Source: Octopus vulgaris | Lineage: Eukaryota | DNA length: 64,000 nucleotides | Direction of reading: 5' to 3' | NCBI GenBank assembly: GCA_951406725.2 | Contig: OX597824.1 | Coordinates: forward strand, 47,740,001-47,804,000 | Shown here: piece after piece, positions 1 to 57,842 of the stretch | Layout of the letters: the number at the start of each line of letters is the position of its first letter | Numbering within the stretch: the stretch's first letter is position 1 | Translations under genes and position numbers: made by a program | Notes under the pieces: generated by a model | Databases searched by the model: none | What the model saw: only the letters and a program-made list of their open reading frames with translations | What the model was told of the DNA's origin: nothing

Positions 1-985
1 TCCCAAACCTCTGTAACATTGCCAGGTCAAGGACTTTTGGAAGTTATCCAGTGTCCACAACCCAAACGTACGAAAAAACAGGCTGTCAAGTTGAATATGC
101 CTGAGACCCTGAGTCTCTACTGTAGTACTGTCACCACTGGCATTATCTGAGCAATGGAATAGCAGGAGGGCTATGTGACACTCCGTATGCCATTCACTCA
201 ACCTAGATCTACGAAAGCACCAGGCTTCCCATCCACCAAAACTAGCAAATGAGGGATACGTTTGTTTCACCAGCAGAGACCACACCCGTTCACCATCCAG
301 AAGAATCCATAGATGTCTCAACCTCAGTGTGTGTTTGCGCATCAACAGCCAAGGCATCCCTAGTCTTCCCTTTAACAGTCTTTGACAGCAAATAGAGCGT
401 TTTACAACTGGCTTTGAGCCCTTCCACACAAAAATGAAAGAGCTGTCTTTCCAACTTGATCAACCATGAATCCAGCAAATAATAATGGTTAGACGGTAGG
501 CCAATGTGTTCATCACATTGGTCATTACAACCGATGCGAGGAACACATTGGCCACCTCTGCCCGCCCTTTCAGGGACAGCCACTGTCAAGACCAGGTTCT
601 GACTATGTGAGCCACTCTGCTCGTAACTTCAGCCCAGTTCTTCTCTACATGGAGGTCTTGACCAAACCAGAACCCTAGCAACTTAACCGGGCCCTCTGTC
701 AAAGTCCTACGACGCTGTCTGAAGGCATCGACTTGCCCCTCCAGGTACCAAGTTGCAAGCCGACCAATTTTTCCAGGTTAATCTTTGCTCCTGCCACCGT
801 CTCATAAACCTCAATGGCCTTGCCTACCTCCTGTAAGTGTTCCATTTTCGTCATCTGCATAAGCTGAAACCGACTTTCAACATCCTGGCACTCTTGGGAT
901 GTCACTCAACCTTTTGCAGTAACAGCTCAAGAGCCAAAACATACAAAAGCAATGAGAGTGGACACCCTTGGTGACCGAGTGTTTG
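1..985 (-). mobile_element. Degraded L1/Tx1-clade LINE ORF2 fragment (RT region and downstream)
   Basis: Minus strand near 900-975 reads QGCPLSLLLYVLALELLLQKVE (L1-type RT motif), then YETVAGAKINLEK...GLQLGTWRGK (ORF 699..905) and WLIKLERQLFHF (ORF 290..589). Frameshifted. Confidence 0.75.
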
Positions 986-3800
986 ATCCAGCGGATCATG
1001 CTAGCTCCATTTCTTTCAAGCCTACGCGTGTCCTCCGCAGTCATGGCCCATGTTTCACTACTGTGAAGCATGGCAGTTCGCACACATGCGTTGTACAATC
1101 TACCTTTCACTCTGAACGAGAGACCCTTTGTTGCCAGTAGAGGAAGAAGCTTTCTAAACTTCGTCCAGGCTATTTCTTATTCTAGTGGTAACACTCGCTG
1201 AGCATCCACCCCAACTAATAACTTGGTCACCTAGGTAGCGGAAGCTATCAACTACTTCTAGTTTTTTCCCCTGGAGTGTGATGGAATCTGTTTTCTGAGT
1301 ATCTGTGGTGTCTATTACCCCTGTGCGTCTGCCGTACAAGAATGCTATCTTCTCGCTTAATTTTTCTTTGATGTTGCTGCACTTCTTATGTGTCCATAGC
1401 TTACACTGGGTACATCTTATGGAGTTTCTACCTACACCTTTTCTACATATTGAGCTGGGCCACCTACCTGAAGGGGTGTGTGATGAGTTCACCTTCCTAC
1501 TTACTAGAACTTTGGTCTTTGCTACATTGACTCTAAGGCCTTTTGATTCTAAACCTAGCTTCCACACCCAAAATTTCTTTTCTAGTTCCGGTAGTGATTC
1601 TGCTATGAGGGCCAGGTCATCAGCATAGAGGAGCTACCAGGGGCAACCTGTCTTGAATTCCTCTGTTATTGTCTGGAGGACTATGATGAATAAAAGAGGA
1701 CTGAGGGCTGAACCTTGGTGGACCCCTATTTCTACCCGGAATTCTTCACTATACTCATTGCCAATCCTAACCTTACTAACGGCCTCTCTGTAAAGGGCCT
1801 CTACAGCCCTTGTTAACCATTCATCAATCTCCAGTTTCCGCATCACCCACCAGATAAGAGATCGGGGGACCCTGTGAAAGGCTTTCTTCAAGTTCACAAA
1901 AGCTTAGTATAGGGGTTTATCTTTAGCTAGGTATTTCTTCTGCAGTTGTTGAACCAGGAATATGGCATCAGTGGTGCTTCTACCCGGCACAAAACCAAAA
2001 TGCATTTCATCTAAGCAGACACTCTCCCTAATGAGATGGGCTATGACCCTCTCTGTGACTTTCATCACCCGATCCAGCAGTTTGATACCCCTGTAGTTAT
2101 TTCTATCTAGCACATCACCTTTACCCTTGTAGCAGTTGACTATGGTGCTGCTACGCCAGTCGTTGGGTATGACTCCATCATGAGTACCTGGTTTACAATG
2201 CGGGTGACTAGGCCATAGCCCACACCACCAGATGTTTTAAGCATCTCAGCAGTGATTCCTGATGGGCCGGGGGCTTTTCCTGGCTTCATACCCCTTAATT
2301 GCTTTATCTACTTGGGAGCTGTCTATTTGGATAGCTGGTCCCTCTACTGGGTCAACACTTGGCAGGCTCTCCTCCTCCCATTCATTCTCCACATTTAGTA
2401 GTCTTTCAAAATAGCTTCTCCAAGCCTCTTTCTTTTCAGAATCATTAAAATCAAGTGCACCATCATTCATGCACATTTCTCTCCTGTGACATCACAATTT
2501 TCTCTCACACAGTCTTGCAATCCGAAATACCTCAGTTCTTTGGCCCTCACGTTGCTGGACATTGGCAAGCTTCTTCTTTTCCACCTCGCTCTTGGCTGTG
2601 TATACCTTCTGCCCAGCCTCCTTTTTGGCTACCTGGTACAGTTTCCTACAACTCCCATTCTTCCGGGCTTTCCAGGCCTGTTTCTTTGCTCTAATGGTCC
2701 TGTCTACCATACTATTCCACCACCATGTAACTCTAGGTCTGGAAGGGACTTTGCACCATCCGCAGACTTAGTCTGTAGCACTCAGCAAGCTGTCCTGTAG
2801 GAATTTCCAGCTACCTTCTATGTCCAATGTTTGTAGCTCCTCCTCCCTCTCCTCAAATTTTTTGATGAAGATATCCCTAAATCTTTGACCATGTGAAGGG
2901 TTCTTTATGTTCCAAATCCTTCTTTTTTGGATTGGTCTGCTTCTTGGTATCCTTCTGGTCTTGAGCCCAAAGTCACTAACGACCAGCCTTTGCTGGGGAG
3001 TACATTCTTCACCCGGAAGGGTCTTTGTATTTAAGAGTAACCCTGCGTCCTGTTGTCTGGTGAGTATGAAATCAATTTGGCTAGCAGAGTCCCCTGATTG
3101 ATAGGTTATAAGATGGCTGTCTGGCTTCCTGAAGTTAGTGTTGCAGATTAAAAGGTTTCACGCATCACAAAACTCCAGTAGCCTGGTTCCCTCATCGTTT
3201 CAGGTGCCAATACCATGGCCACCGTGTACCCCAGTGAAGACACCAGATTCCTGCCCAACATGCCCATTAAAGTCTCCAACCACAAAGATGAGGTCATTGC
3301 CACTCGTCTTTGAGGTAGCCTGTAGAAGGGTATCATAAAAGTGGTCCTTCTGATCATTTTGTGGTCCTGCATGTGGGGCGTAGGCAGAGATAATTGTAGC
3401 TGTGCTGTTCTGCAGGACTAGCCTGAGCTTAAGCACTCTATCGCATACCCTAACAACCTCTATGACCTTATCCACCCATTTCTCTGTGAGGAGTATGCCT
3501 ACATCCCTTACACCATCCATGTTGCCTTGCCAGAAGACTTTATACCTATGTACCTTGCCTGTGAGGACCCTAGCTGAAGCTCCTCTCCATCTTACCTCTT
3601 GTATGCAGCATACATCAACCCGTCTCCTTTCAAGTATTTCTGCAATCTCACTAGACCTACCTTTCAGTGTGCCAACATTGACAGTGCCAAGTCTGAAAAC
3701 TGGGAAGGGAATGTAGGGTTAGGTTTGGGGAGGAGGGATGTTATTCAGTGTCTGAAAAGAAGAGGGTTGTTGTGGTGTTCGTTTTTTAGGCATGCTTCTT
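986..3800 (-). mobile_element. RTE-clade LINE, near full-length ORF (APE endonuclease + RT + PHD-like finger), frameshifted, 3' end missing
   Basis: Endonuclease motifs TVNVGTL, IQEVRW, ISAYAP, VGDFNGHVG, QIDFIL. RT motifs NYRGIKLL, HFGFVPGRSTTDAIF, VHQGSALSPLLF, YADD, FRYLG. The 5' boundary is approximate. Confidence 0.9.
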
Positions 3801-4189
3801 CTGTTCTCTCTTCCGACCTGACAACATTCAAGCATGTTAAGATTGTTGCCCCTACTGGAGGTAGGAGCCGGTGTTAGCGTTGTAAGCATAAGCATTATGG
3901 TCATCGAATGATGTAGATTCAAGCGGTGTAGCAAAAATATGGATATTCCAATGTTAGGTTAGGAAGGGGTCAGCTGAAACTGGTTGTGTTTGTTCCGGTA
4001 GAGGGGGATTGCAGGTATAATGGAGGGTACCACCAGCAAGGAAGGGTTCAGACAGAGAGAGAGGAAAAGCTCATTCCTATATATACACAAGCACACTCAC
4101 ACACAGGAACAAGCACACAAGGACAGCCAAATAGCTTTCTCCTTCACTTCGTAAGGCCAAGGAAAATTCCTGGGTAGTTGTTGTCATGT

Positions 4190-4625
4190 TTCTATACAGA
4201 ATGAAAATGGAATGAACGATAGCTGGTTAAGTAGGTGGGCAGATAACTTGGTTGCGTTTGTCCCAGTAGAGAGATAGTGAAGGTGCAGGTAATAGAAGGA
4301 ACAGCACCAGTGAGGAGGGGGGAATTGGGAGAAGAGATAACTGGAAGGGGTGGTGACAAATTTCTAGACAGAATGAAACGTAAGATAGTCAGTGAAGTGG
4401 GTGGGTGGATGAGCAGCTGGGCTGGTTGCATTTGTCCTAGGAGAGAGAGAAGTGAAGGTAATATATGGAGAACAGCCCAGTGAGGAGGAGAGTGGGAGAA
4501 TAGACACAGGTAATGGTGGTGGGAGAAGGGATATCCAGTGTAGATGGTGGGAAGATAGAGATATCCAGTATTGGTTGTGGTGGTGGGAAGATAGAGATAT
4601 CCGGTATTGGTGTTGGGGTGGGAAA
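4190..4625. repeat. Degenerate tandem repeats (about 170-bp duplication plus about 36-bp unit x3)
   Basis: ACAGAATGAAA...GGTTGC.TTTGTCC.AG.AGAGA...AGTGAAGGT occurs at about 4195 and about 4368. GGTGGGAAGATAGAGATATCC.GTATTGG recurs across 4515-4620. Confidence 0.6.
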
Positions 4626-5593
4626 GGGTGGGTGCACTGTAAACAAGCAAAGATTTGTTTGGGGGACAGAGGAGAAACACACATATGTGTACAATGTATG
4701 GCGGTTTAGTTCACAGGTGATCCCAGTGATTAGGTATGCTAGGTAAGTGCTGTAACGGATTACTAGGGCTCCAAGTTTATAGCCAAGATGGCAGTTATGG
4801 AGACATTGCAGATTTCCGATGCAGTGGATATATAATTGTTAAACAGGTCAACAAACGTTAAGGCAAGGCAAACATCTCGAGTGATATACACTATTATTAT
4901 AACAAGAAATTCAAAGTCTTATAGCTGTTTGGGGGATATTCCATCATCACAAAGAAATAGCGGGTAAAAAATATGGAAAATGAAAATGGTATATATCAAT
5001 ATGATGACAACATAGAGGAAGGGTGTAAAAGAATAAGGAGATGGAAAGCGAGAAGAACAAAGAAGCATAAAAGTTCATAGTTCAACTTTCTGAAGTTACA
5101 GACACCAGAGAATGAGTCCTTAGGTGCAATCCTACGTAGATCTATGAGTGTAAGTCTTTTGGTGCAATCCTGCATATATCCATGTGGGTTAAAGTCCTGA
5201 TATAGTAGACATCCCAAGCAAAAGACGCGAATATATCAATGTTCTATAACAGAATGGTAGCAGAGGTAGCTATTAATTGGTGAAAGTAAAGAAGAAAAAA
5301 GAAATAGAAAGATAGGTAGATAGAGTGAGGGGGGGGGGGATTTCAGGATCAACTATAGGACAAAGTAAGGTGCATATGTGTATGGGGTAGCCGAGAAGAT
5401 GAGAAAGAAGTAGAGGTACCCTATCTTTCATCCCTTTTCATTTCTTAGCCCAAGTGTTGATAAAATAAGTGTTATTGATATTGTTATTAACATAGTTTAT
5501 TTAATTCAGCTACATGCCTCTTGTCCTAAAATCAATCTCTTGTACTTAACAAAAGAAATTGGTGGTTGAAGTTCTATATATTTTACATTTCAG

Positions 5594-5691
5594 GTTGTGG
5601 GAAGCACGTTGAAAGTGTGATGAAAGATGTTCCAGATGAGGACAAATGTAAATGTGAGGTTCACAACCCTAAATCATGTTCAGCAATTTGA
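5594..5691 (+). CDS. Terminal coding exon of a small Cys/His-rich protein: (G)CGKHVESVMKDVPDEDKCKCEVHNPKSCSAI*; upstream exon not found in window
   Basis: Acceptor ttttacatttcAG at 5581-5593, phase 1, open frame to TGA at 5689-5691. GCGxH...CxC motif and C-terminal CaaX (CSAI). Followed by repeat-free, AT-rich, UTR-like sequence. Confidence 0.7.
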
Positions 5692-6119
5692 AAATAAGTT
5701 TATTCCTTCAGTTTATCAACTGAAAATGCAGTAGCATGAATATTTTGTTATCTCTATTTTCATCAACCATGAATCATTAAAAGTGTTAAACAATGTCGAT
5801 TTTGTTGAAGTTTTTCTTTCATATGTTTTCTCATGAATAATACCTGATTATCTTACTGCACTTCTGTTTTTGATGTGGCAGTATTTCACTTGAATAATGG
5901 TGTTGCTCTAGTGTAAGTAGTTCCTAGTTAAATTTCCTTTACATTTGTAATGCATTTCAAATACTTGGCTGTTTTAAATTTTTATTCTTGTCCTCATTTT
6001 TATGAGGATGAGACCTGATTTTATACTGCTATAAAAATACAATTTGGTGATCAGAGTTTTTTTTTATCTAATCTTACTTGGAACAAGAGTCTAGAGTTTT
6101 TTAAGTAAAATTCAAAAAA

Positions 6120-7290
6120 AGTATTTAGATATTTGTACATTTATTCAACCACATATGTCACGTTTTGTTCCATTACCTTTTGCCATATTTAAGGCAGTCT
6201 CATGATCCCATTCTCTCAGAACTTGGCATCTTTCTGGATCATGAACTGTTCTAAGTGGTTTTTACGAACTTCCAAAGAATCGAAGTCTCTCCCATTAAGA
6301 GAATTTTGTAAGGTTTGAAATAAATGGTAATCTGAAGTTGCAAGATCGGGTGAATACAGTGGATGTGGTAGGGCATCCCAACCAAGCTGTACCAATTTCT
6401 GCTGGATCTGCAAGGAAACATGAAATCTAGTGTTGTCCTGAATGAAGATGACACCCTTCTGATTGACCAATTCTGGATGTTTTTCATCAATTGCCTCCTT
6501 TAATTGGTCTGATTGGCAACAACAATTGTCTGAATTCAACCGCTGAATTTGCACGAGCATGTAATACACAATACCCTTCCAATCCTTCCTGATACTGAGC
6601 ATCAACTTCAGATACTACCAGCTTTTGGAGTGATTAAAGGCGGTTCATTTTGTTTTCTGATGAACTTTGTTTACTGTACATTCATCATCATCATCATCGT
6701 TTAACGTCCGCTTTCCATGCTAGCATGGGTTGGACGGTTCAACTGGGGTCTGGCAAGCCCGAAGGCTGCACCAGGCCAGTCAGATATGGCAGTGTTTCTA
6801 CAGCTGGATGCCCTTCCTAACGCCAACCACTCCGAGAGTGTTGTAAATAATCCATTTTTCATCATATGCGATTGTTCTATTCAAAAATGGCTAATTTTTG
6901 TTGAGTTTGAGCAGAGAATTCAAGATGGAAATGCAGTCCATTAGATTATGAGGCACCCAAATATCAGCAATTTGGGTACCCAAATAGTTGTAAATACGTT
7001 ATGACACTCATAAGAAATATGTGAAGTATCTCTGCAACATCTTGTCGTGTGACCTGGATTATTTTTGATTAGCATTTCAGTTTGGTTGCCATTAATGCAA
7101 GGATGTTCATGGTCTTCCAGTTCAAAATTTTCACTCCTTAACCTCATGATGACTTACAGTCCTCTCAGCTATGGTACTATCTCCATAAATTGTATCTTTT
7201 TTGCTGTTTGTACAGCATTTTCCTCCTTTCTGGAAAAAAAGAGCATCAAACGATGAAAATGTATCTCATATTCTTCCATTTTCATTTTTA
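6120..7290 (-). mobile_element. Mariner (Mos1-like) transposase relic, interrupted by an RTE 3'-tail insertion
   Basis: ORF 6216..6605 has QDNTRFH...WDALPHPLYSPDLATSDYHLFQTLQNSLNG. N-terminal HTH remnant at 6940-7270. Confidence 0.85.
6683..6843 (-). mobile_element. RTE 3'-end fragment with (GAT)n tail, nested in mariner
   Basis: (CAT)n-CGTTTAACGTCCGCTTTCCATGCTAGCATGGGTTGGACGG... matches the terminus of the RTE copy at 29927. Confidence 0.85.
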
Positions 7291-19599: not shown

Positions 19600-20127
<528 letters not shown>

Positions 20128-28871: not shown

Positions 28872-29333
<462 letters not shown>

Positions 29334-29356
29334 TGAGCATACTATTTGAGCATACT

Positions 29357-29926: not shown

Positions 29927-32722
29927 TATCATCATCATCATCATCATCATTTAACGTCCGCTTTCCATGCTAGCATGGGTTGGACGGTTCGACTGGGGTC
30001 TGGGGAGCCCGAAGGCTGCACCAGGCCAGTCAGATCTGGCAGTGTTTCTACAGCTGGATGCCCTTCCTAACGCCAACCACTCCGAGAGTGTAGTGGGTGA
30101 TTTTATGTGCCACCGACACAGGTGCCAGACGAGGCTGGCGAACGGCCATGCTCAGATGGTGTTTTTTATGTGCCACCGACACAGGTGCCAGACGAGGCTG
30201 GCGAACGGCCACGCTCGGATGGTGTTTTTATGTGCCACCGACCCAGGTGCCAGACGAGGCTGGCGAACGGCCACGCTCGGATGGTGTTTTTATGTGCCAC
30301 CGACCCAGATGCCAGACAAGGCTAGCAGACGACCACGCTCGGATGGTGTTTTTTATGTGCCACCGACACAGGAGCCAGATGAGGCTGGCGATCGGCCACG
30401 ATCGGATGGTGATTGTTACGTGCCCACAGCATGGAGGCCAGTCGGTGCGGAACTGGCTACGGCCACGTTTGGATGGTACCACAAAGATACAAATTCCATT
30501 GATGTTCATCTATTTTGATTTTGTTTGATTTTTTGATTTGATTTGATTTGATTTTCACTTGCCTCAACAGGTCTTCACAAGTGTCACAAGAAGGAAGGTA
30601 TGCACAGGTGGACTTACTACGTCCCAGGTAGGGGCCACGGGTTATGGCCTGACTAGTCTTGCCGGGTCTTCTCATGCACAGCATACTTCCATAGGTCTCA
30701 GTCTCTAGTCATTTCCTTGGTGAGACCTAAAGTTCGAAGGTCGTGCTTCACCACTTCGTCCCAGGTTTTCCTGGGTCTACCTCTTCCACAGGTTCCCTCA
30801 ACTGCTAGGGTGTAGCACTTTTGCACACAACTATCTTCAGCCATTCTCGTCATATGACCATACCAGCGCAGCCGTCTCTCTTGCACACCACAACTGACGC
30901 TTCTTAGGTTCAACTTTTCTCTCAAGGTACTTACACTCTGACGATTATGAACACTGACATTACACATCCATCGGAGCATACTGGCTTCATTTCTTGCGAG
31001 CTTACACATATCCTCAGCAGTCACGGCCCATGTTTCACTACCATGTAGCATGGCTGTACGTACACATGCATCATACAGTCTGCCTTTTACTCTGAGCGAG
31101 AGGCCTTTTGTCACCAGCAGGGGTAAGAGCTCTCTAAACTTTGCCCAGGCTATTCTTACTCTAGCAGTTACACTTTCAGCACACCCACACCCACTACTGA
31201 CTTGGTCTCCTAGGTAGCGGAAGCTATCAACTACTTCTAGTTTGTCTCCCTGGAACGTGGTAGAAGTTGGTCTCTGCACGTTTCCAGAGTTTGTTTCTCC
31301 TGAGCATCTGCCACATACGAAAACTATCTTCCCAGCCTACCTTTGACATTGCTGCACCTCTTATGTGTCCATAGCTTACACTTGGTGCACCTTATAGAGT
31401 TTCTACCTACACCTTTTTTACAGATCGAGCAGGGCCATCTACCTGAAGTCGTTTGTGGTTGGTCCACCTTCCTACTAATTAGGACTTTGGTTTTGGCTAG
31501 GTTGATTCTAAGGCCCTTCGATTCTAATCCTTGTTTCCACACCTGAAACTTCTCCTCCAGTTCTGATAGTGACTCAGCAATTAGAGCAAGGTCATCAGCA
31601 TAGAGGAGCTCCCAGGGGCATCCTGTCTTGAATTCTTCCATTATTGCCTGGAGGACTATGATAAATAGGAGGGGGCTGAGGACTGAACCTTGGTGGACCC
31701 CAACCTCTACCCGGAATTCTTCACTGTACTCGTTGCCTACCCTCACCTTACTAGCAGCGTCTCTGTACATGGCACGCACAGCTCTCACTAACCATTCATC
31801 TATCCCTAGTTTCCTCATTGACCACCAGATAAGGGATCGGGGGACCCTGTCAAAGGCTTTCTCCAAGTCAACAAAAAGCCAGGTACAAGGGCTTACCTTT
31901 GGCTAGGTATTTCTCCTGCAGCTGTCTTACCAGGAATATAGCATCAGTAGTACTTTTCCCTGGCACGAACCCAAACTGCATATCATCTAAGCTTACTCTC
32001 TCTCTAATTAATTGGGCTATAACCCTCTCCGTAACCTTCATTACCTGATCCAACAGCTTGATGCCCCTGTAGTTATTTGTATCTAGGGCATCACCTTTAC
32101 CTTTGTAGCAGTTGACTATTATGCTGCTACACCAGTCATTGGGTATGACTCCTTCGTGTATCACCTGGTTAACTATACGGGTGACTATGCTATAGCCGAC
32201 ACTACCAGATATTTTGAGCATCTCTGCAGTAATTCCTGATGGGCCTGGGGCTTTCCCTGTCTTCATGCTTCTAATTGCCTTAGCTACCACGGAACTATCA
32301 ACTCGGATAGCTGGTCCCTCTGTTGGGTCAACATTCGGCAGACTCTCTTTATCCCATTCATTTTCCTCATTCAGCAACCTTTCATAGTGGCGTCTCCAAG
32401 CCTCTCTCTTTGCATCCTCATTTAGCGCAAGTGAACCGTCATCCTTGCGAACACATTTCTCTCCTACCACATCACGATTCTCTCTCACACACTGTCTTGC
32501 AACACGAAATGCCTCAAGTCTTTCATCCTCACGGCGCAGGACATTGGCAAATTTTCTCTTATCTGCTTCCCCTCTGGCTAGATAGACCTGTCTCCTAGCT
32601 TCCCTTCTGGCAGTCTGATACACTTCCCTGCTACCCTCGTTCTTCCAAGCCTTCCAAGCCTGTTTCTTTTGTCTAATAGCCCAGTCAACAATATTGTTCC
32701 ACCACCACGTTATTTTGGGTCT
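29927..32722 (-). mobile_element. Young 5'-truncated RTE LINE (RT + PHD-like finger + 3' UTR minisatellite + (GAT)n tail) in SLC35E3 intron 3
   Basis: ORFs 31868..32737, 31324..31866 and 30698..31279 are contiguous with two frameshifts; ELLYADD is intact. Confidence 0.95.
30100..30478. repeat. About 61-bp GC-rich tandem repeat (about 6 units) in the RTE 3' UTR
   Basis: TTTTATGTGCCACCGACACAGGTGCCAGACGAGGCTGGCGAACGGCCACGCTCGGATGGTG repeated head-to-tail. Confidence 0.9.
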
Positions 32723-33661
32723 TATGCACATACACACACATATATATCATTGTCATCATTTTAACGTCCACTTTTTCCATATTTTCAGGTTCAGACAGAA
32801 GTCATTGAGGTAGATTTTCTTTCAGATGCTTAGAAGACTTGCTAGAAGTGGTTGACAACATCTGCTACCTTAATGACCTAATAGTTAGGAGCTGAGTGTT
32901 GGGACAGTGTAGGAACTAGGATAATGGCATAGTGAAAAAAGTTGAGGGAGCTGTTATTTTCTGTTGGCAACAAAAGAATCCTCTCTAGAAGTGAATAGCA
33001 GATTGTATGATGTTTTATACAAAGGCTGGGAAAAAACAAGTTATGTTCTACTAGAAGAATTGGCTGTTGTGTGCAAGAGAGATAACTGCACTGATATAGA
33101 CACATGCACATGAGGGATGGCTGCAGAATTGCTGAGTAAACCAAGTAGAAAGAACTTGAGAGAGGAACAAATGTTGAAAGCTAACTTTAGATGTTGAATT
33201 TCACAAAGGCGTAAGGTACCTTGCTAGAGAAGACTGATCCAGTCCATGCAAGCATGGAAAAAAGAGGTGAAATGATAAGGATTGAGTGCTGTGTCTACTA
33301 TCTTTTATAACTAGAGCTTTCCATTAGCAAAGCATTGTACCTTTTAAGCAAAACCTGAAGCTGTTTCCTTATTCTACAAAAGAATAAATAGCAGTAAAAT
33401 AGCAGTTTTAAGTAGAAACTGAGATGCAGTTATAATCAGACAAAGATTAAAGATTGCAATGACAGGGATTCATTGCTTATGTAAATGGATTTTACCATAC
33501 TGGCTAAGACACCATTAATTGTTTTTGTAATATTGTGATATATAGGAAACAAATAATTGTTAGAACTTATATTTCTTTAAAATGTTATACAATTGTTATC
33601 ATGTGTGCACCCTTTGGTGATTAAATATATGCTTCTTTATAGATTACCATAATCTCAGTAG

Positions 33662-44695: not shown

Positions 44696-47238
44696 CTAGC
44701 AGCATAGCCCGGGTATGTAAGGAACTTTGTCGATAGGCAATGCCCTTTACCTTTTTACCCTTTTTTTGTACTCATTGAATCGTTATTTTGTAAAATGAAG
44801 CCTAAAAGGCATTAAGGCACCATTCCCTTGCATGCATGAAGAAAATCTATGACAGTCAAAGTGCATTTTCTGGTTTTGTTTAGCACACCCAACCCAGTTC
44901 TGCGAGATCAGTGTCACGACGGGAACGCATGGGTTGGGAGTTTGACAGGCAGAGGTGATATGGTTGCACATGCCGGCCCTTTTGACCCCCCCCCCAACCC
45001 AAGTTAGGTTCGGACCACAGCTAAGCCCTACCTAATCCTAACTTAAGTCTAGCGAAAGGGGGCTCGGGAGCCTCCAGTAGGCAACGACTAATCCCTCTAG
45101 GGAACGAAGGCGCATGTGTAGGTTGCAATGTCTTCTCTTCACTCCAATACTTCTGTGTATACAACGTTTCTAGCTGTCCCTTTGGGCGAAAACATGAAAA
45201 CATCATTGCGCCTCCCAACGCGTGAACAGCCCACGTAGAGTTGACCATGGGCGAAGCACTGTTCGCCCAAATGTAACCCAGCGACTTGTAGCATTTGGCC
45301 TTGGGATTTATTGATGGACATTGTGAAGCAGAGTTTAACAGGAAACTGAGAACGCCTGAAATGGATTGGTAGGTCAGCGCCCGACGGTTGAAGGTGCATG
45401 ACATCATCTCCCTTCCCACAACCGGTAAGTATTGTGGCCGTTATTAAATGTGGTGCCAAATGTTTCACAACCAGATGTGTGCCGTTGCACTGTTTAGGTG
45501 GAACCAAATTCCTGATGAGCATAATAGGCGCGCAGACTTTTAACTTCAGGATGTGTGGCGGTTCAAGTGAATTCAGGAATTCAACGGGATAATCGGCAAG
45601 CTTGGCAGGGTCTGCTGTATATATATATGTGTGTGTATGCAAAACGTATATACGCAGATACATACGTTCATATTATAAAATACATGTAAGTGGCAACATA
45701 TAGTAAATAAACACAAAATAATAGATATACACACACAGATGACATATAAGATCCATACCCAGATATGCACACATGGTTGTAGACATGTAGTACACCAAGA
45801 AGTTCTATATATGCATACATGTTTGCATATATCGGCAGTAAAATATATTTAATTATCAGATTTGTAGACGTGGACATCACCAGGAATAGCTTCAAGTAGC
45901 TGGATATTGATGGAGCTGACGGTTGTATTTTTGGGTGTGAGAATAGCTCTGCTTGCCAGCCATTTTAGGTCGCGTAAATTGTTTTGTAGGTTGTGGAAGA
46001 CAGCGTCCCGGAAGCTAGCAGGGGTGTCGACAGTGGTGCAAAGCGAGTCCAATTGAACGCAGCCGGCATCCTATTTTCACCGAGTGATAAAAGGTCTCTG
46101 GAGAATGCAGCGGATCTGCTGTCACCAATCAACTGCGTGTGAATGTTAGTTTGGAGGTGCAAGGGCCGCACATGTGCCCAAAGAGCTAACGACTTAAGGC
46201 ACGCATGCACGGGTTCCTTTAGGAATAACAGGTAGAGTCTGCCTGAAGTCTCCTGAAAGAAGTAAAGTCAATCCTCCCATGGGGGCCGTAGAGTCTCTGA
46301 TGTCTTGCAGGGACCAGTCCAGTGCCTCAAGGGCGCCTTTGTGTGCCATAGTGCACTCGTCCCATGTTCTGAGTTCTTGGCGATGTTGCAGATAGGTGAC
46401 TCGGACTTTGCCAGATCGAGCGGGAGTCTGAAGGCAGAGTGGGCAGTTCTGCAACCCAGAAGCAATGTGGCCGCAATACCAGAGGAAACTACAGCCAGGG
46501 CAATGTCCGTGTTGCATCTGACCTCCGCCAGAATTAGTTTCGTGACGAAGGTTTTGCCAGTGCCGCCAGGTGCGTCATGGAAGTAAATCCCCCTACGTTG
46601 CTGGTCGTTAGTTTGACATTTAATGCAAACTTGATGTCCAACATCGGTGTAGGGAAAATTCATGTGAACTTTCAAAAAATATATCAGAAAAATCGGTTTG
46701 CTATGTGTGCCACATATGATGTAATTAACCGATTTTTTCTAGTAATAACGTATCCTATTGGAATCAAAAGGGACATGATGCTCACTGTGAATTTCAAAAA
46801 AATTCCTGCCAATTTGTTAAAGATATTGTCGAAAATATGTCATCTTGAATTTGAATGCGATTTCCCAAAATGACATGATTTTATCGATTTTTTTCTGATG
46901 GTAAGGTATTGCATGGAAAACTAACAACAGAATTAAGTTCCTTAGGGTAACACTAAGCTTCACCATGAGTTTGGTGAAAATTGATTGCAAGTTGCGAAAA
47001 CTACAACAGAAAATGTGTTGCATATGAAAAGCTTAGATTCTCGATCCCATGTCGAATTTATCGATTTTTTTCAGAACTGGGGGAACTTTTCAAAATTTTC
47101 ACTGCGTTAGTTTTGAATTATGACATTGGGCTATGTGTGTGTCAAGTTTCATCAGAATCGGTTGAAAGCCATGGTCAGGGTGAGGGTACAACCTGACAGA
47201 TACACAGACAGACAAACTGTCTTTTATATATAGAAAGA
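44696..47238 (-). mobile_element. Internally deleted Helitron with PIF1-family helicase remnant and both termini
   Basis: DAPGGTGKTF (Walker A), [80 protein letters not shown]. Minus-strand ends A|TC (47238) ... CTAG|T (44696). Confidence 0.9.
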
Positions 47239-48002: not shown

Positions 48003-48326
48003 TTATTTCTGTGATTCCTCAACCAGATCTTTTACTTCACATGGGTTATTTTCATCTTGTCCTATATGACCAGCACTTTTCAGTTGCTCATACAACAACG
48101 TTTTCTGTTTTACCTGATATGTTATTGTTCTGTCCAAATAGTAAGTACTTTTAAGTTGAATATTTTGAATAATATCACTAAGAAGGTGAGCTGCATGAAC
48201 AGTTTTCCCAGGACAGTCCAGTTTGATGTTGTTTATATGCACATGGAAATGAGGATAAGATGGTTTGTAATGACAGTACATATATAGTTTATATGCTGGC
48301 ACACCATATTTCTTTTCAATGATTAT
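48003..48326 (-). CDS. DCPS: m7GpppX diphosphatase (scavenger decapping enzyme), exon 4 (last)
   Basis: CAG|IIIEKKYGVPAYKLYMYCHYKPSYPHFHVH...AHLLSDIIQNI...YYLDRTITY; HIT triad HFHVH. Confidence 0.94.
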   Translation of the reverse strand: MIIEKKYGVPAYKLYMYCHYKPSYPHFHVHINNIKLDCPGKTVHAAHLLSDIIQNIQLKSTYYLDRTITYQVKQKTLLYEQLKSAGHIGQDENNPCEVKDLVEESQK

Positions 48327-50754
48327 CTGGAAGAAAAAAACAGAAAAAATAAGCACAAGTATAGCTGTGTAAAAAATTTTGCTTGAAAATACATGGTTTG
48401 GGGTTCAGTCCCCAGTGTGGCATCTTGGGCAAATGACTTTTATTATAGCCCCAGGCCAATCAATGCTTTGTGAGTAAATTTGGTAGAGGGGAAACTGTGT
48501 GGAAGCCCACTGTGTGTGTGTGTGTGTAATCGTCCAACCCATGTTGGCATGGAAAGTGGATATTAGACGATGATGATGATATATACAAGTGTAAAAAATG
48601 GAATTTAGATTTGTCCTTTAATTTGGAGGTTGCCAAAAAAGATTTCTAATATTGATTCTTCATATTTTGCTGGTAGTTTACAGGCGTAAATTTGCGAATC
48701 TGAAAATAATACTTGTATATGGTGTGTTGTGAATTTATGGAAAGAAATCCCATAAACTCAACAATTTAGTTAACAATGGAGAAGAGAAGGTGTTAAAATA
48801 TATAAGAGAATTTTAATTCATGGAGATGATCATTTCGTACAGAGATATAAAAATAATGCAAATTCATGGTTGAACTGAATTAAATAACATCGCCTTACTG
48901 GCACCTGTGCTGGTGGCATGTGTAAAAGGATTCGAGCAAGGTCGTTGCCAGTACTGCCTGACTGGCCCCCGTGCTGGTGGCACGTAGAAAGCACCCACTA
49001 CACTCTCGGAGTGGTTGGCGTTAAGAAGGGCATCCAGCTGTAGAAACTCTGCCAAATCAAGATTAGAGCCTGGTGCAGCCATCTGGTTCGCCAGCCCTCA
49101 GTCAAAATCATCCAACCCATGCTAGCATAGAAAGTGGACGTTAAACGAACATTAATTACATATCAATGTACTCTTCAGTGCAAGAAGTATAAACAAAATT
49201 TTGACAATGAACTTGAGAAAGGAAATAGCAGAGAAGAATTTAGGGGAGTCATTTTTATCCTTATGAGAAAAAGAGATACAAGTCTAGTTTTGTATTAACT
49301 ATAACTAAAGGCTATAACGGTTATTTGATAATATAAGTAAAAAGAAGTTACAGAGACGTTCCCTTTATAGATGAGTTAGGATATTAGAAATTTGACCTTC
49401 AAATAAGTTGCAGAGGGCAAAAAATTGTATAGAAATATCCAATGGAAAGGCATGGCTATATTTGAATTAAGATATGACCTGAAAGTTAAAAACATTACTT
49501 AGTGTGGTGTATATTTAAAAAAAAAAATCATACATGAGAATGAAGTTAATATTGAGGAGATAGTGTATAAAGAGCTACTAGATAGTTAATGTAAAAAAGT
49601 GTTAGAGAGGTAAAAAGGGTTAAAGAAAGAATAAGATGCGTAAGATGGACTTACGTTTGCATAAGAACTAATATTCGTTAGTATGTATTAAATATAAGGT
49701 AGAAAAATAAGTAAAAAAAAAAAAAAGAAAAGAAAAAATAGCTGTTAATATTACAATTTAGATAGTAAATACTTGATGTGACTATAAAGATGAAAAAAGT
49801 AAAGTTGAACTAGATAATGGGTGCTGGAGTACGGAAAAGTAAAACAATGTAGGGGAGATAAATGAGCTGGGAATGAAAATAAAGGGTTTATTTTATATGT
49901 ATTGATATGTAAGGTTATACAGTAACTATGTTTTAGTATAAATAAAAATGATGAGGTAAGAAACTAACCTGGCATAATGTGAGAGGGATATTTAATGTTA
50001 TTATGGTAGTATTAATATTCAAGTAATAGAAGAGTATTGCGTATTATGAATATAAGAAAAGGTATGAGTATAGGAGTGCACATAAGTATACAAAAAATTT
50101 ATACATAACGTCAGAAAAAAAAAAATCTTATAAGGAAATAAGTGTTTAGTATATTTACTCATACGTGAGTAGAGGCATATTTGCACATTAGTATACATAG
50201 ATATATGATTTCTAGTTGTTTTTTGATTAGGGTATACACAAAAGAAACACCATACAAAACTACATACTCATACCGGTGCAAAAAGAGAAAGGCGCACACA
50301 TATAAAAAAAAAAGTATATATATATATGTGTGTGTGTGTATGCAAAACGTATATACGCAGATACATACGTTCATATTATAAAATACATGTAAGTGGCAAC
50401 ATATAGTAAATAAACACAAAATAATAGATATACACACACAGATGACATATAAGATCCATACCCAGATATGCACACATGGTTGTAGACATGTAGTACACCA
50501 AGAAGTTCTATATATGCATACATGTTTGCATATATCAGCAGTAAAATATATTTAATTATCAGATATAGTGACAAGTAACATAAACCAGAATGGGTATGTT
50601 GAGGGAGTTTAATGGACACATAAAGCAAATAAAATAAAATAATTATAGGTATATACTAAAGAAAGATATAATTTTTTAAAAAACCCCAGACACATTGAAA
50701 GAAAAGGAGGTGTAGGGAGAGATAAAGTGTTAGCCCAATGTCAGTGTGCACACG

Positions 50755-51272
50755 CATTGGAGTGTAAGCACCCTGAGAGAAATGTTGGACATAAGAAGCA
50801 TCAAATGTGGTGTGCAAGAGAGACGACCGGTAAGTAAAGTGAGATCACAGCAGTAACCTATACCAGTGTCGCATAACCAGGCCATTTAAAAAGTATCTTT
50901 GAATTGTCAGGTGACACACTGTGCTTGAGGAGACCTATTGAGTCAAGTAAAATCAAAAATGACACATCAAGTCACAATCAAAAATGGAAATTGTAGCTGT
51001 GGCCAATGCCAGCACTGCCTGACTGGCTCATATGCTGGTCGCACACAATAAGTACCATTCATGCACGTGTCATTGCCAGACTGGCTCCCATGCTGGTGGC
51101 ATGTGAAAAGCACCCACTACACACTCGAAGTGGTTGGCATTAGGAAGGCATCCAGCTGTAGAAACATTGTTCAGATTAGATTGGAGTCTGATGCAGCCTC
51201 TTGGACTTGCCAGCCCCCAGTAAAACCGTCCAACCCATGCCAGCATAGAAAACGGACGCTAAACGATGATAA
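50755..51272 (+). mobile_element. Deleted RTE 3' fragment
   Basis: LREMLDIRSIKCGVQERR remnant joined to the 3' UTR and a GACGCTAAACGATGAT tail. Confidence 0.8.
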
Positions 51273-51283
51273 TATATATATAT

Positions 51284-53893
51284 ATCATCATCATAATCGT
51301 TTAACGTCCGTTCTCCATGCTAGCATGGGTTGGACGGTTCGACTGGGGATCTGGGAAGTCAGAAGGCTGCACCAGGCTCCAGTCTTATCTGGCAGTGTTT
51401 CTACAGCTGGATGCCCTTCCTAACGCCTGCCAATGTTCTGAGCCGTGAGGATGAAAGACTTGAGGTATTTCGTGTTGCAAGACAGTGTGTGAGAGAGAAT
51501 CGTGATGTGGTAGGAGAGAAATGTGTCCGCATGGATGATGGTTCACTTGCGCTAAATGAGGATGCAAAGAGAGAGGTTTGGAGATGCCACTATGAAAGGT
51601 TGCTGAATAAAGAAAATGAATGGGATAAAGAGAGTCTGCCGAAAGTCAACCCAACAGAGGGACCAGCCATCCGAGTTGACAATTCTTTGGTAGTTAAAGC
51701 AATTAGAAGCATGAAGACAGGGAAAGCCCCAGGCCCATCAGGAATTACTGCATAGATGCTCAAAATATCTGGCAGTGTTGGCTATAACCTAGTCACCAGT
51801 ATAGTCAACCAGGTGATACACGAAGGAGTCATACCCAATGACTGGTGTAGCAGCATACTAGTCAACTGCTACAAAGGTAAAGGTGATGCCCTAGATACAA
51901 ATAATTACAGAGGTATCAAGCTGTTGGATCAGGTGATGAAGGTTACGGAGAGGGTCATAGCCCAACTAATTAGAGAGAGTTAGTTTAGATGAGATGCAGT
52001 TTGGGTTCGTGCCAGGGAAAAGTACCACTGATGCTATATTCCTGGTAAGGCAACTGCAGGAGAAATACCTAGCCAAAGATAAGCCCCTGTACCTGGCTTT
52101 CATTGACAGGGTCCCCCAATCCCTTATCTGGTGGTCAATGAGGAAACTAGGGATAGATGAATGGCTGGTGAGGGCTGTGCAAGCCATGTACAGAGATGCC
52201 GTAAGTAAGGTTAGGGTTGGCAACATGTACACAGAAGAATTCAAAGTAGAGGTTGGGGTCCACCAGGGTTCAGTACTCAGCCCCCTCCTATTTATCATAG
52301 TCCTCCAGGCAATTACGGAGGAATTCAAGACATGTTGCCTCTGGGAGCTCCTCTATGCTGACGACCTTGCTCTAATTGCTGAGTCACTATAAGAACTGGA
52401 GGAGAAGTTCCAGGTGTGGAAGGAGGGTTTAGAATCGAGGGGCCTTAGAGTCAACCTAGCTAAAACCAAAGTACTAATAAGTAGGAAGGTAGACAATCCA
52501 CAAATGTCTTCAGGAAGATGGCCCTGCTCGATCTGTAGAAAAGGTGTAGGTAGAAACTCTATAAGATGTACCCAGTGTAAGCTATGGACACATAAGAGGT
52601 GCAGCAATGTCAAAGGTAGGCTAACTGGGAAGATAGTTTTTGTATGTGGCAGATGCTCGGGAGCATTAACCTCTGAAAATCTGCAGAAAACAACTTCCGT
52701 CACTTTCCAGGGGGAAAAACTAGAAGTAGTTGATAGCTTCCGTTACCTAGGTGACCAAGTCAGTAGTGGGGGTGGGTGCGTTGAAAGTGTAACTGCTAGA
52801 ATAAGAATAGCCTGGGCAAAGTTTAGGGAGCTCTTACCTCTGCTGGTGACTAAAGGCCTCTCGCTCAGAGTAAAAGGCGGACTGTATGATGCATGTGGAC
52901 GAACAGCCACGCTACATGGCAGTGAAACATGGGCCGTGACTGCTGAGGACATGCGTAAGCTCACGAGGAATGAAGCAAGTATGCTCCGATGGATGTGTAA
53001 TGTCAGTGTACATACTCGACAGAGCGTTAGTACCTTGAGAGAAATGTTGTACCTAAGAAGCATCAGTTGTGGTGTGCAAGAAAGACGATTGCGCTGGTAT
53101 GGTCATGTGGCGAGAATGGATGAAGATAGGTGTGTGAAAAAGTGCCAATCCCTAGCAGTTGAGGGAACCCGTGGAAGAGGTAGACCCAGGAAAACCTGGG
53201 ACGAGGTGGTAAAGCACGACCTTCGAACTTTAGGCCTCACTGAGGAAATGACCAGCGACCGAGACCTTTGGAAATATGCTGTACCTGAGAAGACCAGGAC
53301 AAGTGAGCCCAGCCCACTTATGCATGCCTTTCCTCCCTTGGACATAAAGACCTGTTGAGGCAAGCGAAGTCAATATCGAACCTCATCCGACGACAGGCAC
53401 CCATGCCAACCCCCTTTGCTTGCGAAGACATGTTGGGGCAAGTGAAATCGAAATTGAAATTGATATTGAACCAATCCTATGACTGGCACCCGGCAGATGC
53501 CAGGACCCCTGGACTGGTGGTACGTAAAAAGCACTATCCGAATCATGGCCGATGCCAGCGCCACCTAGACTGGCTTCCGTGCCGGTGGCGTGTAAAAAGC
53601 ACCATCCAAATAGCGGCCGAAGCCAGTGCCGCCTCGACTGGCTTCCGTGCTGGTGGCACGTAAAATGCACCAATCCGACCGTGGCCGCTGCCAGCCTCGC
53701 CTGGCACCTGTGCGGGTGACACGTAAAAAGCACCCACTACACTCATGGAGTGGTTGGCGTTAGGAAGGGCATCCAGCTGTAGAAACATTGCCAGATAAGA
53801 CTGGAGTCTGGTGCAGCCTTCTGGCTTCCCAGATCCCCGGTCGAACCGCCCAACCCATGCTAGCATGGAGAACGGACGTTAAACGATGATGAT
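51284..53893 (+). mobile_element. Young 5'-truncated RTE LINE in DCPS intron 3, with an inverted RTE 3'-end fragment fused to its 5' end
   Basis: ORF pieces across 51428-53358 (NYRGIKLL, QFGFVPG, HQGSVLSP, YADD, PHD-like finger, FRYLG). Tail GACGTTAAACGATGATGATG at 53875-53893. 51284-51427 is a minus-strand tail copy. Confidence 0.93.
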
Positions 53894-54772
53894 GTGTGTG
53901 TGTGTGTGTTTTTGTCCCCCACCACTACCTGATAATAGGTGTTGGTTTGTTTATGACCCATAACTTATTGGTTTCACAAAGGTGACCAATAGAATAAGTA
54001 CAAGATTTAATATAAGTGCTGAGTCAAAGGTAATGATGATGGTTTACATAGCAACAAGCAACAAGTTTGTCAAGGAGTAGTAAACTACATCAATTCTACT
54101 GCAAACTGGTGTTCATTTCTATTTACCTTGATATGACTTGAACTTGAAATACACAAGTTCAACATTGCTATATGGACAATGCTGTTCAGAGCACTAACAT
54201 TTCTGTTGGTTCAATAATAATTCATATTTGATGTAATTAAGCACCCAAAGAGGGTATTGAACAAATTTTGTTACATCAGTTAAATTTTATTACATTTTAT
54301 ATATTTATTTTTATTTATAATCATTTAATACATCCAAATATTGATGAAGCCCACAGAAGGCCAACTCAGTTGGAATAAATCAGCTTATTAACTAGTTTGG
54401 TTACAGAAAAATGAACCAACCAAATTGGTACACTGTTAAGAAATAACCAACAGAATGTTTGAAGATGGCAAAACATGAATCAAATTAAATATTATGAAAT
54501 ACAACTTGTGGTACATTCATGTTAGCCATTTAAGTGTTAAGATGTATGTGTGAATTTAGTGGCTGCCCGACTACCACAATGTAAATTATTCGGTTTCAAC
54601 AGATAATAGCAGATTGATAACAGATATGGAAGGGGTACAACTCCATAATAATATAAAATGTCAGGCATACTGTAATATTTCCAAACAGCTGAATTATTAT
54701 TATTATTAATTATCACTTATTAATTAATCTTGTAATGACAAATAAGAAAAGAGAAAGAAAGGGACAACTTAC

Positions 54773-54997
54773 AGGACATTCAGTGAGAATAGACTTGAGC
54801 ATTGGTAAATGTGACTGGTTGAGATCACGAATTGATTTAATGTTACGTTTATGGACAATGGCTACAAAGTACAGGGAATCAATATCAGTGCCATTCCATT
54901 TAAGATCAGGCAATAAAATGAATCCCTTTTCAGGATCTGGGTCTTCATATAAAATTCTCTCCTTTTCAGATTTCTTATTCAATATGTTATATACCCA
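54773..54997 (-). CDS. DCPS: DCPS exon 3
   Basis: CAG|WVYNILNKKSEKERILYEDPDPEKGFILLPDLKW...SIRDLNQSHLPMLKSILTECP|GTAAGT; 225 nt. Confidence 0.94.
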
Positions 54998-55896
54998 CTG
55001 AAAAGAAAACCAAAAGATAGATAGATAGAATGTATGTATGTATGCATGCATGCATGTTAAAATTTACTACATTTTATATATTTATTTTTATTTATAATCA
55101 TTTAATATATGCATGCATGTATATAGGCGATTCTGTTATTTTAAAAATTAGTTACATTGGATAGTAACAGAATTAATAATATCTTTGCAAATCAACTTTT
55201 TGTGAATTATTTTTCTCGTGAATTGTTTGCTCCTGTATCGAGATATATGTGTGTGTGTCATATACATATTTCATTGTTTGATAAGTGCCACACATGAAAT
55301 TCTTTTGCTCTTGAATCCCTTTGTAACTTTTGCCAATTAAAAATAGCCAATAATTATTATATATTATTAACATCATTTAACGTCCATGTTCCTTGCTGGT
55401 AGGGGTTGAATGGTTTTTATAGGATCTGAAAGGTCCCAGGACAGCATTGTGGTCTACTGTCTACTTTAGTATGGTTCCTATGGCTGGATGCCCTTCCTAA
55501 TGCCAACCACCTTACAGCATGTACAGGGTACTTTGTGTGTCACCAGCTCTAGTGAGGTTGCCACTACCTTCCCTGCTTATTACATCACCTAGGTAATAAA
55601 AAGCTATCAACTACTTCTAGTGAGCTATCTGGACATTTAAGAGAATCTATTTCTGATTGCTCATAATACATATTGCTCAAGTGCATGTCACAAAGCTTAC
55701 TTTCTCTATTAGATTGCCTGTGATTCCACTACACTTCTTATGTACCCATAGCTTACATTGATTACAACATATGGAGTTTATACTCCTTTCCTGTATATTG
55801 AGCAAAGTTATTTCCCTGAAGACACCAGGGTCCCATCTTTTTTCCTACATACAAAAACCTTACTTAGTCTTTGCTAAGTTTGTGCGTGTGTATGTA

Positions 55897-55961
<65 letters not shown>

Positions 55962-55962
55962 C

Positions 55963-56243
55963 ACCGTGACCGACCAGGCTATCAGATGTTGCTACACATC
56001 ACTGGTCACAATGCACTTCTCATTGTTTTAGCCTTCACATGATGCCACCCCCGCTGGCTAAGCAAGCAAGCCTACAGGAAAAAGAGTGAAAGTTGTGACG
56101 AAAGAGTACAGCAGGGATCCCCACCCCCACCCTGCCGGAGCCTCATGGAGCTTTAGGTGTTTTCACTCAATAAACACAATGCCCAGTCTGGGAATCAAAA
56201 CCGCGAATGTGCTGCCCTAACCACTGGGTCATTGCACCTCCAC
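55963..56243 (-). mobile_element. tRNA-derived SINE, third family
   Basis: Reverse complement begins GGAGGTGCAATGACCCAGTGGTTAGGGCAGC...GGTTTTGATTCCCAG; flanked by (TA)n. Confidence 0.65.
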
Positions 56244-56429
56244 ATATATATACATATATCATCATTGTTTAACGTCCATCTTCCATGCATGCATGGGTAG
56301 GACAGTTCACAGGAACTGGCCAAGTACAAAAACTACCCTATGCTACTGTCTGCTTTGGCAGGGTTTTTATGCCTGGATGCCCTTCCTAACACTAACTACT
56401 CTGCAGAGTGGACTATAAATATATATCAT

Positions 56430-57010
56430 TCATAGTACACTGCTGATAACAATGTACTTCCAATTTTGTCGTGACTGCACCATTGTTTTCTATCTTGACC
56501 CAAATTGCTTGACTAAATTGTCTTCCCATATCATGGTGGCCCTTTCCAATCTCTTGGATACTACTTGGCACCTTGCATGGATCCACCTGTTGTCTGTGAA
56601 TCTTGCAACATGTCTGGCCCAAACGGAACTTGTGCTTTCAGTACTCTGTGATCACATTGTTCACGGCTCCATTCTCAAATCTCATTTCGAATGTGTTCTC
56701 TTTGTGATGTTCCTAGCATGGATCTTTCCATAGCCCTTTGTGTTGTAACCAATCGATGTTCAATCCTTTTTGTAGTAGTGCACAGCTTATTTGCATATGA
56801 GGGCACAGGTAGAATGGTGCTACTGAAGAGTCTGGCACATATGGCATTGTCTAGCTTTGTTCCAAGCACATCCTTTATTGATTTAAATGCCATCCATTCT
56901 GCTCTTATTGTCTTTGAGATTCCAGCATCCATATCTCGGCACATATTCATTGTGTGCACTACCTCCTCGATTTCATCACTTCTCACTTCTATTCAGCCTT
57001 GTGTTAAAGG
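56430..57010 (-). mobile_element. Old RTE-type LINE C-terminal fragment
   Basis: ARLFSSTILPV...LVTTQRAMERSMLG...EHIRNE, then WARHVARFTDNRW. Confidence 0.75.
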
Positions 57011-57696: not shown

Positions 57697-57842
57697 GTCT
57701 ATACAAAGGGCTTCCTTTTCTAAGGCTGGCAAAGCAATTTTCTGATATATCTCTGGTGTTTCATGAACAACAAAACACTCTTGCTGAGTATATTTGGTAA
57801 TGTGCAAGTCTGTGGCGGGATTAATAAATGTTGCTTTTACAT
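57697..57842 (-). CDS. DCPS: DCPS exon 2
   Basis: CAG|(D)VKATFINPATDLHITKYTQQECFVVHETPEIYQKIALPALEKEALCID|GTATGT; 146 nt, phase 1/0. Confidence 0.92.

Follow-up and report, generated by a model that had tools for sequence, protein, structure and literature searches.

Within a 64,000-nucleotide stretch of the Octopus vulgaris genome (the window; contig OX597824.1, positions 47,740,001 to 47,804,000), positions 5594-5691 hold a reading frame that a first-pass annotation had proposed to be the last exon of a hidden microprotein gene, with a GCGxH...CxC metal-binding motif and a C-terminal CaaX prenylation box. This raises two questions: whether so short a frame belongs to a real gene and, if it does, what its small, cysteine-rich product might do.

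A two-exon, spliced and polyadenylated gene

Exon 1 was sought by scanning for the motif CxxC-x-K-x-TW over 100 kb upstream and over window positions 1-5600, and a single match was obtained, in the upstream stretch L002. It lies at L002:919-967, and the prediction of an upstream first exon carrying CxxC..K.TW outside the window is thereby borne out. The coding part opens with an ATG at L002:919 and ends in a phase-1 GTGAG donor after L002:967, while the 5' UTR reaches back to at least L002:786, with no upstream ATG in L002:786-918. Splicing of the two exons gives 48 codons and a protein of 48 amino acids with seven cysteines. DNA and protein searches of the octopus's own 2.8-Gb, intron-rich genome showed the gene to be single-copy. 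The features of the gene are as follows.

L002:786-967 (G000:C11:47730786-47730967), + strand: exon 1, about 9.1 kb upstream of window base 1; coding part L002:919-967 (G000:C11:47730919-47730967)
1..5593, + strand: 3' part of intron 1, the whole intron being 14,626 nt
About 1154-3718, - strand: LINE fragments in intron 1, antisense to the gene, with an endonuclease domain at 3203-3718
5574..5593, + strand: pyrimidine tract and AG splice acceptor (AG at 5592-5593), used by the normal and a distal alternative donor
5594..5797, + strand: exon 2, the last exon, phase 1; 5593-5797 is matched letter for letter by contigs of X2, X6 and X14
5594..5691, + strand: coding part of exon 2, residues 17-48 and stop (32-residue reading, TGA at 5689-5691)
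5594..5607, + strand: G-C-G-x-H motif (Cys18, His21), its G-C-G and H the same in all 143 rows of the family alignment
5647..5655, + strand: C-x-C motif (Cys35, Cys37), Cys35 being invariant
5677..5688, + strand: C-terminal C-S-A-I box, a predicted farnesylation site of the non-canonical ('shunted') type
5692..5797, + strand: 3' UTR of 106 nt, containing ATTAAA (5776-5781) and polyadenylated after 5797

Spliced reads entering at 5594 had been named as a check on this gene, and junctions of this kind were found in contigs of X2, X6 and X14. In these three of the four runs at exon 2 the contigs start at the acceptor and their loose end is the end of exon 1; at exon 1, contigs of three of four runs (X2, X6 and X18) leave the exon and their loose end is the start of exon 2. 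The exon junction is backed by contigs of four studies (P2, P3, P5 and P8). Moreover, one contig of X2 (394 nt) and one of X6 (339 nt) span exons 1 and 2 together and finish, beyond 5797, in poly(A); this begins 16 nt behind ATTAAA, at a point without a stretch of A in the genome. None of the runs is on record as RNA, their labels being 'RNA?', which is a guess, or simply '?' in the case of X18; the contigs are therefore taken to be mRNA because of the splice junction and the non-genomic A tail, and not because of the run labels. Aligned to the genome, they show no letter differences in the coding exons.

It is thus beyond reasonable doubt that 5594-5797 is the last exon of a real two-exon spliced, polyadenylated animal gene. 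The acceptor, the frame, the coordinates (5592-5691) and the peptide ending C-S-A-I before TGA are as first described. The UTR-like DNA said to follow does contain a 3' UTR, but this takes up only the 106 nt of 5692-5797, the rest of the repeat-free DNA lying beyond it. A complete transcribed gene model has in this way been obtained from a stretch too short for ORF callers.

Several further observations were made at exon 1. Run X1 displays a long form of this exon, L002:854-3741 (approximately 2.9 kb), with a GTAAG donor at its distal end joined to the same acceptor at 5594; its frame meets a stop after 22 codons. X1 also has a deeper contig ending at L002:3472, and X18 gives shallow cover of the same stretch. 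The long form may be an isoform destined for decay, or one polyadenylated within the intron, by which the gene is regulated. A contig of X18 carries 31 unexplained letters before L002:843, where there is no AG acceptor, and these could be adapter, a chimera or an alternative 5' end. A scan of L002 upstream of exon 1 revealed no metal-response (MRE) or antioxidant-response (ARE) element above chance.

Elsewhere in the window, a gene of the TPT (triose-phosphate/nucleotide-sugar transporter) family, probably SLC35E3-like, has a first exon at 19618-20004 on the + strand (Pfam TPT, E 0.00025) and a probable later exon at 28872-29336, also on the + strand. Exons of a gene for the DcpS scavenger decapping enzyme lie within 48003-62284 on the - strand. 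Transposon remains are present at 1154-3718, 6216-6614, 30698-32746 and 45139-46873 on the - strand and at 51324-53358 on the + strand. They comprise Pif1-helicase (Helitron-like) pieces, a mariner-type transposase piece and several LINE copies, and one LINE copy in the window is open over 321 codons.

The protein family and its C-terminal tails

With exon 2 alone as the query, seven proteins were recovered at E <= 1e-3 among 1.84 billion, one of which (P0002) is a chance repeat. Profile searches retained 2,781 of 3,295 candidates at E <= 1e-3, and 775 of 789 with a second profile; the family thus has at least 2,781 proteins, and 120 matches were listed per profile search. A word-based homologue search with a 40-aa stretch was empty, yet relatives exist, which shows that search to be insensitive. 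Named members among the matches listed are from basidiomycetes, early-diverging fungi, actinobacteria, Schistosoma japonicum and Helobdella robusta, and the ESM Atlas added ascomycete-rich clusters, all unnamed 'hypothetical protein'; no member among the matches listed carries a function name.

Against profiles without rows from its own genome the octopus protein scores 72.7 bits (A2) and 73.8 bits (A5), which places it in the family. The 72.7 bits were obtained against a bacteria-only profile, and the proposed kinship to an uncharacterised bacterial and fungal family is in this respect sound. On the two search profiles the protein scores 78.7 and 88.2 bits, which is within the range of both lists, yet it appears in neither. 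This suggests that it is missing from the protein collection, and hence that the gene is, as had been supposed, probably unannotated.

The family core reads C-x4-CxxC-x-K-x-TW-x-GCG-x-H ... C-x-C. Over 143 rows, residues G17, C18, G19, H21 and C35 are invariant, and C2, C7, C10, K12, T14, W15, V25, V29 and C37 are nearly so. Of the 337 stored members with a parsed core, 69 have G-H in place of C37, and a His taking over from Cys at the final ligand is in keeping with a metal site. Met-Cys opens the octopus protein (L002:919-924) and each of the 153 bacterial members as well; if exposed, the N-terminal Cys could be an extra amine ligand or, in animals, an oxygen-sensing N-degron. In six unnamed eukaryote-like cluster representatives the domain is fused to thioredoxin.

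No Pfam or NCBIfam match was found for exon 2, and none at curated level for the 143 family members; LipB matches (E 0.002 or weaker) were put down to chance. AlphaFold models of close homologues predict a hairpin, a short helix and a loop, with a core pLDDT of 80-88. Sequence comparison gave no PDB assignment (one match was judged to be chance), and neither Foldseek nor VIA matched the AlphaFold model of P0141 to a solved fold, a result that does not establish a new fold. No description of the family was found in the literature outside subscription journals, and the supplements of PMC8643695 and PMC7533328 might list the gene.

Three entries filed as cluster members (P0215, P0221 and P0278) proved to be unrelated long proteins and were dropped as a database artefact. 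As far as a protein sequence can tell, P0003 looks as if only exon 2 had been called; it may have a phase-1 acceptor in the matching position, and it has a CaaX box of its own. Protein sequences likewise suggest that fungal P0085 has an intron one base away (phase 0) and that P0064 and P0083 keep another. Viral contigs L093 and L094 encode intact family members, and a 114-aa protein of Yasminevirus (BFVD A0A5K0U7B3) matches the model with 44% identity at E 0.002.

Beyond the core, the members differ in their tails. Among the distinct bacterial tails, 120 of 153 match G-F-[LF]-x-R-L-F-G, compared with 2.7 in shuffles, a share that is inflated because the queries included such tails. The motif is nearly identical to the E. 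coli MinD membrane tag as quoted in the accessible text of PMC5471200. The hydrophobic moment of the bacterial tails shows a small excess (0.61 versus 0.51), 3 of 150 being individually significant, and the tail helix predicted at residues 46-50 has a pLDDT of approximately 59. A Cys-x-x-x box, mostly with an aliphatic a2, ends 14 of the 124 eukaryote-like tails longer than four residues, although several of these members are close relatives and they are for that reason not 14 independent cases. Cys stands exactly at position -4 in 14 of 25 Cys-bearing tails of the protein set and in 0 of 153 bacterial tails. No tail at all is present in 69 of the 193 members from the protein set, mushrooms for the most part but Schistosoma too, and the Helobdella member has a His/Cys/Gly-rich tail in place of the box, which together show that the anchor is dispensable. 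Conservation of the CaaX box, which had been put forward as a check, does not extend across animals, in that the Schistosoma (P0110, P0282) and Helobdella (P0121) members are without it. Judged by these motifs, the family tail appears to be a swappable anchor, in the form of a MinD-like amphipathic motif in bacteria and of a CaaX box in some eukaryote-like members. If an amphipathic helix has been exchanged for a CaaX box, nature would here provide a clean example of convergence in membrane targeting.

The octopus box, CSAI, obeys the basic rules (Cys four from the end; a2 not D, E, K or R; X not K, P or R). In the accessible data of an 8,000-sequence yeast screen (PMC10320760), CSAI has a Ydj1 HM of 4.18 against a cut-off of 3 (CASQ, 4.63), a test that most CXXX sequences pass, and a Ras HM of 0.98 against 16.8 for CVIA and 4.87 for CASQ. 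The corresponding part of a GGTase-I screen gives 0.33 at 42 °C (PMC11304957). The box is accordingly plausible as a prenylation site, having passed the Ydj1 cut-off, but it is not a canonical one: by its Ras-reporter score it falls short of the canonical aliphatic a2 type with full processing. In addition, the octopus tail has no polybasic second membrane signal. Taken together, the poor Ras score, the want of a polybasic signal and the leniency of the Ydj1 test suggest that membrane anchoring may be weak. On the basis of the yeast reporters, CSAI is likely to be farnesylated but not fully processed, and would thus serve as a modest anchor.

In eight members (P0098, P0105, P0109, P0112, P0126, P0135, P0159 and P0161) a CaaX-like tetrapeptide is followed by extra residues. 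Those of the Mortierellaceae are possibly mis-annotated or alternatively spliced ends; in the unnamed members a Trp follows the box, as if the gene caller had read through a TGA stop.

Bacterial gene neighbourhoods and candidate functions

A scan of GTDB yielded at least 591 relatives in 600 stretches, of which the best 80 of 591, nearly all actinobacterial by title, were kept; these loci are enriched in close relatives and in tail-bearing members. Genes were called de novo and representatives were named by Pfam/NCBIfam. At least one sulfur or CsoR-family gene lies within 4 kb in 65 of these 80 loci, the counted neighbours being rhodanese, PDO-rhodanese, CoA-disulfide-reductase-rhodanese, TauE, SQR and CsoR-family genes. 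By type, the best 80 of 591 loci have rhodanese-type (59), CsoR-family repressor (40), TauE (21), thioredoxin (19) and SQR (5) neighbours. Gene order around the bacterial members is highly variable, and no neighbour is constant across loci. The CsoR-family background was 53 matches in 75.8 Mb (20 of these genomes), or one per 1.4 Mb; with a mean locus of 7.5 kb, approximately 0.5% of loci would be expected to contain one, versus the 50% (40 of 80) observed.

In the alignment each of the 40 CsoR-family repressors has two Cys, and none has a His at the position four residues ahead of the second Cys. Two Cys without the Cu-binding His are the signature of a persulfide sensor, according to the accessible text of PMC8643695. 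Moreover, the ScCsoR operator, as given in the part of PMC7533328 that is accessible, occurs exactly and within 120 bp upstream of 41 of the 80 members. Among 333 control genes it precedes 9, and of 80 stretches taken downstream it occurs in 1. It is present in 12 of the 15 loci without sulfur genes, which means that 77 of 80 loci show one sign or the other. In an even sample, drawn as a check against selection bias, 16 of 201 Actinomycetota genomes carry the gene; at 11 of 18 loci a sulfur or redox gene lies within approximately 1.5 kb, and the operator stands in 2 of 12 parsed loci (6 of 18 unparsed). These checks are weaker but agree. For a second subfamily, 80 of 597 metagenome loci, mostly on short contigs, were taken, and their neighbours include thioredoxin (15), rhodanese-type (7), CstR-like (5), OsmC (5) and YgaP (5) genes; ECF sigma factors stand at 13 of these loci, approximately 11 of them with a fused zf-HC2, and the operator occurs in 1 of 77. 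The actinobacterial members, then, sit in persulfide-detoxification loci, which is a new finding here. The first-pass annotation overlooked this persulfide/thioredoxin context of the bacterial members, as it did the alternative MinD-like anchor.

The best explanation, to which a probability of about 0.45 is attached, is that the octopus protein is a membrane-tethered metal-thiolate persulfide/oxidant buffer that is recycled by thioredoxin, by analogy with the bacterial context. All of the functional evidence comes from bacterial and unnamed eukaryote-like sequences, and the animal role would follow by extension. In this model the seven conserved Cys/His would bind one or two metal ions, probably Zn; under sulfide or oxidant load the thiolates would become persulfidated or oxidised and release the metal, and thioredoxin would then reset them. 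The tail would place the domain beside membrane enzymes of sulfur handling (SQR, TauE and YgaP-type in bacteria), the membrane being where sulfide would be oxidised and sulfite exported. In the octopus, a farnesyl group on the C-terminal box is predicted to hold the protein at the membrane, and the animal copy would have kept the persulfide/oxidant role. A precedent for such chemistry is metallothionein-3, which binds sulfane sulfur as well as Zn and is reset by thioredoxin (PMC12618007, accessible text). The domain would operate in a similar manner, though it is not itself a metallothionein.

Metal binding might, alternatively, be the whole of the function. A plain Zn/Cu-buffering, metallothionein-like peptide, placed at sulfur loci for protection against metal release or metal-sulfide stress and not for sulfur chemistry, would be consistent with the seven conserved Cys/His and their Cys/His exchange, with the extra His/Cys-rich tail of the leech member, and with the operator, since the accessible text of PMC7533328 describes the ScCsoR operator as also similar to the operators of the copper sensors CsoR and RicR. 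This is nevertheless rather unlikely. Copper pump and chaperone motifs are all but absent from the loci, the P-type ATPase motif occurring in 0 of 160 and the CopZ-type motif in 0 of 80 and 1 of 80 (1 of 160 overall), the repressors are without the Cu-binding His, thioredoxin is fused to the domain in six cluster representatives, and no MRE lies upstream of exon 1 within L002. Metallothioneins have a very high Cys content and no aromatic residues, whereas the octopus protein is only 15% Cys (7 of 48) and has a near-invariant aromatic residue (Trp), and no metallothionein family is among the Pfam matches of the 143 members. Motif scans of the loci for CDF and multicopper proteins were too loose and were disregarded.

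The same Cys/His set could, instead, be structural. A Zn mini-domain acting as a redox-switched adaptor or regulator instead of a stoichiometric buffer, which docks thioredoxin, rhodanese or an ECF sigma factor at the membrane, would suit the compact hairpin-plus-helix predicted by modelling (core pLDDT 83-88), the conserved non-ligand surface residues K12, T14, W15, V25 and V29, and the ECF sigma factors with fused zf-HC2 beside approximately 11 second-subfamily loci. Zinc-ribbon matches in Pfam point the same way but are sub-threshold, in 16 of 143 members with a best E of 0.025. It is an improbable reading: no single neighbour is constant across the loci, there is no match to a solved fold, although a model of this size may be overlooked, and the AN1 finger was rejected at a profile probability of 2%, albeit with an AN1 alignment of only 4 rows.

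A small iron-sulfur protein (for example of 3Cys-1His type), sensing or passing sulfur or electrons at membranes, is very unlikely. The Cys/His ligand set, the sulfur-metabolism context and the membrane tail would accommodate it, and 4 of 143 members have a weak Pfam 'FeS' match (E 0.043), but no CDGSH or ferredoxin family is among the 24 weak matches and no Fe-S assembly genes are among the recurring neighbours.

Origin and likeness to known systems

The octopus core is identical to those of the best fungal and flatworm members at 26-27 of 36 positions, and to those of the two bacterial sets at no more than 22 and 20 of 36 (best 80 loci each). A tree of 80 rows and 36 columns has 45 of its 77 inner branches open; the octopus protein comes off a fork that is likewise open, together with animals, fungi and some bacteria, and the test does not reject an animal clade (p-AU 0.389). 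Nothing here shows or requires a transfer, and old inheritance with many losses fits equally well. The horizontal acquisition proposed at first thus finds no support in a gene that has an intron and is closer to fungal and flatworm members than to bacteria, within a poorly resolved tree. A recent acquisition from bacteria, or a non-functional remnant, is highly improbable for the octopus gene: a patchy range (two named animal species among the matches listed; 16 of 201 actinobacterial genomes) and a homologue-like match in a giant virus speak for it, and the intact frame, the 14.6-kb intron, the poly(A), the fungal and flatworm affinity of the core and the unrejected animal clade speak against it.

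A 2,700-member family of 'hypothetical proteins' gains a testable role from this work, and the octopus protein is short enough for direct synthesis and assay. Should the persulfide/oxidant-buffer reading hold, the handling of persulfides and oxidants in bacteria, fungi and invertebrates alike would include a new small component, a domain of 40 residues. A wider proposal, tentative and on balance doubtful, is that of an ancient persulfide-handling module with a small fold of its own, running from bacteria to animals with MinD-type and prenyl anchors interchanged, and acting as a sulfane-sulfur carrier or sensor. If true, this would be a missing membrane sulfane-sulfur carrier/sensor linking bacterial CstR regulons to animal sulfide biology.

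Among known systems, the CSAI box is comparable to those of the 'shunted' CaaX proteins such as yeast Ydj1, lying above the Ydj1 cut-off as CASQ does; it differs in its Ras score, lower than that of CASQ, and the accessible data (PMC10320760, PMC11304957) are for yeast enzymes acting on reporters and not for the octopus protein. The bacterial tails copy the C-terminal membrane targeting sequence of MinD/FtsA almost residue by residue, going by the text of PMC5471200 that is accessible, but here the tag sits on a 37-aa Cys domain instead of an ATPase, and is replaced by CaaX or lost in eukaryotes. With the ScCsoR and CstR regulons, as set out in the accessible portions of PMC7533328 and PMC8643695, the bacterial members share the operator and an x-C-x-C repressor, and they adjoin the same PDO-rhodanese, rhodanese, TauE, CoA-persulfide-reductase-like and SQR genes; the difference is that those portions describe no such mini-protein, and that the animal gene lies outside any such regulon.

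Zinc ribbons and AN1 fingers have a CxxC knuckle and a CxxH pair in common with the family, and are set apart from it by Pfam matches below threshold, by the 2% AN1 probability and by the want of a PDB fold match. Metallothionein-3/GIF is approximately 30% Cys, compared with seven Cys in 48 aa for the octopus protein, and the two have no sequence or family match. They are alike in being small and Cys-rich, with a proposed Zn-thiolate/persulfide chemistry and recycling by thioredoxin (PMC12618007, accessible text). The GCGxH family is distinguished by its conserved Trp and His, its predicted folded hairpin-helix core, its membrane tail and its bacterial members.
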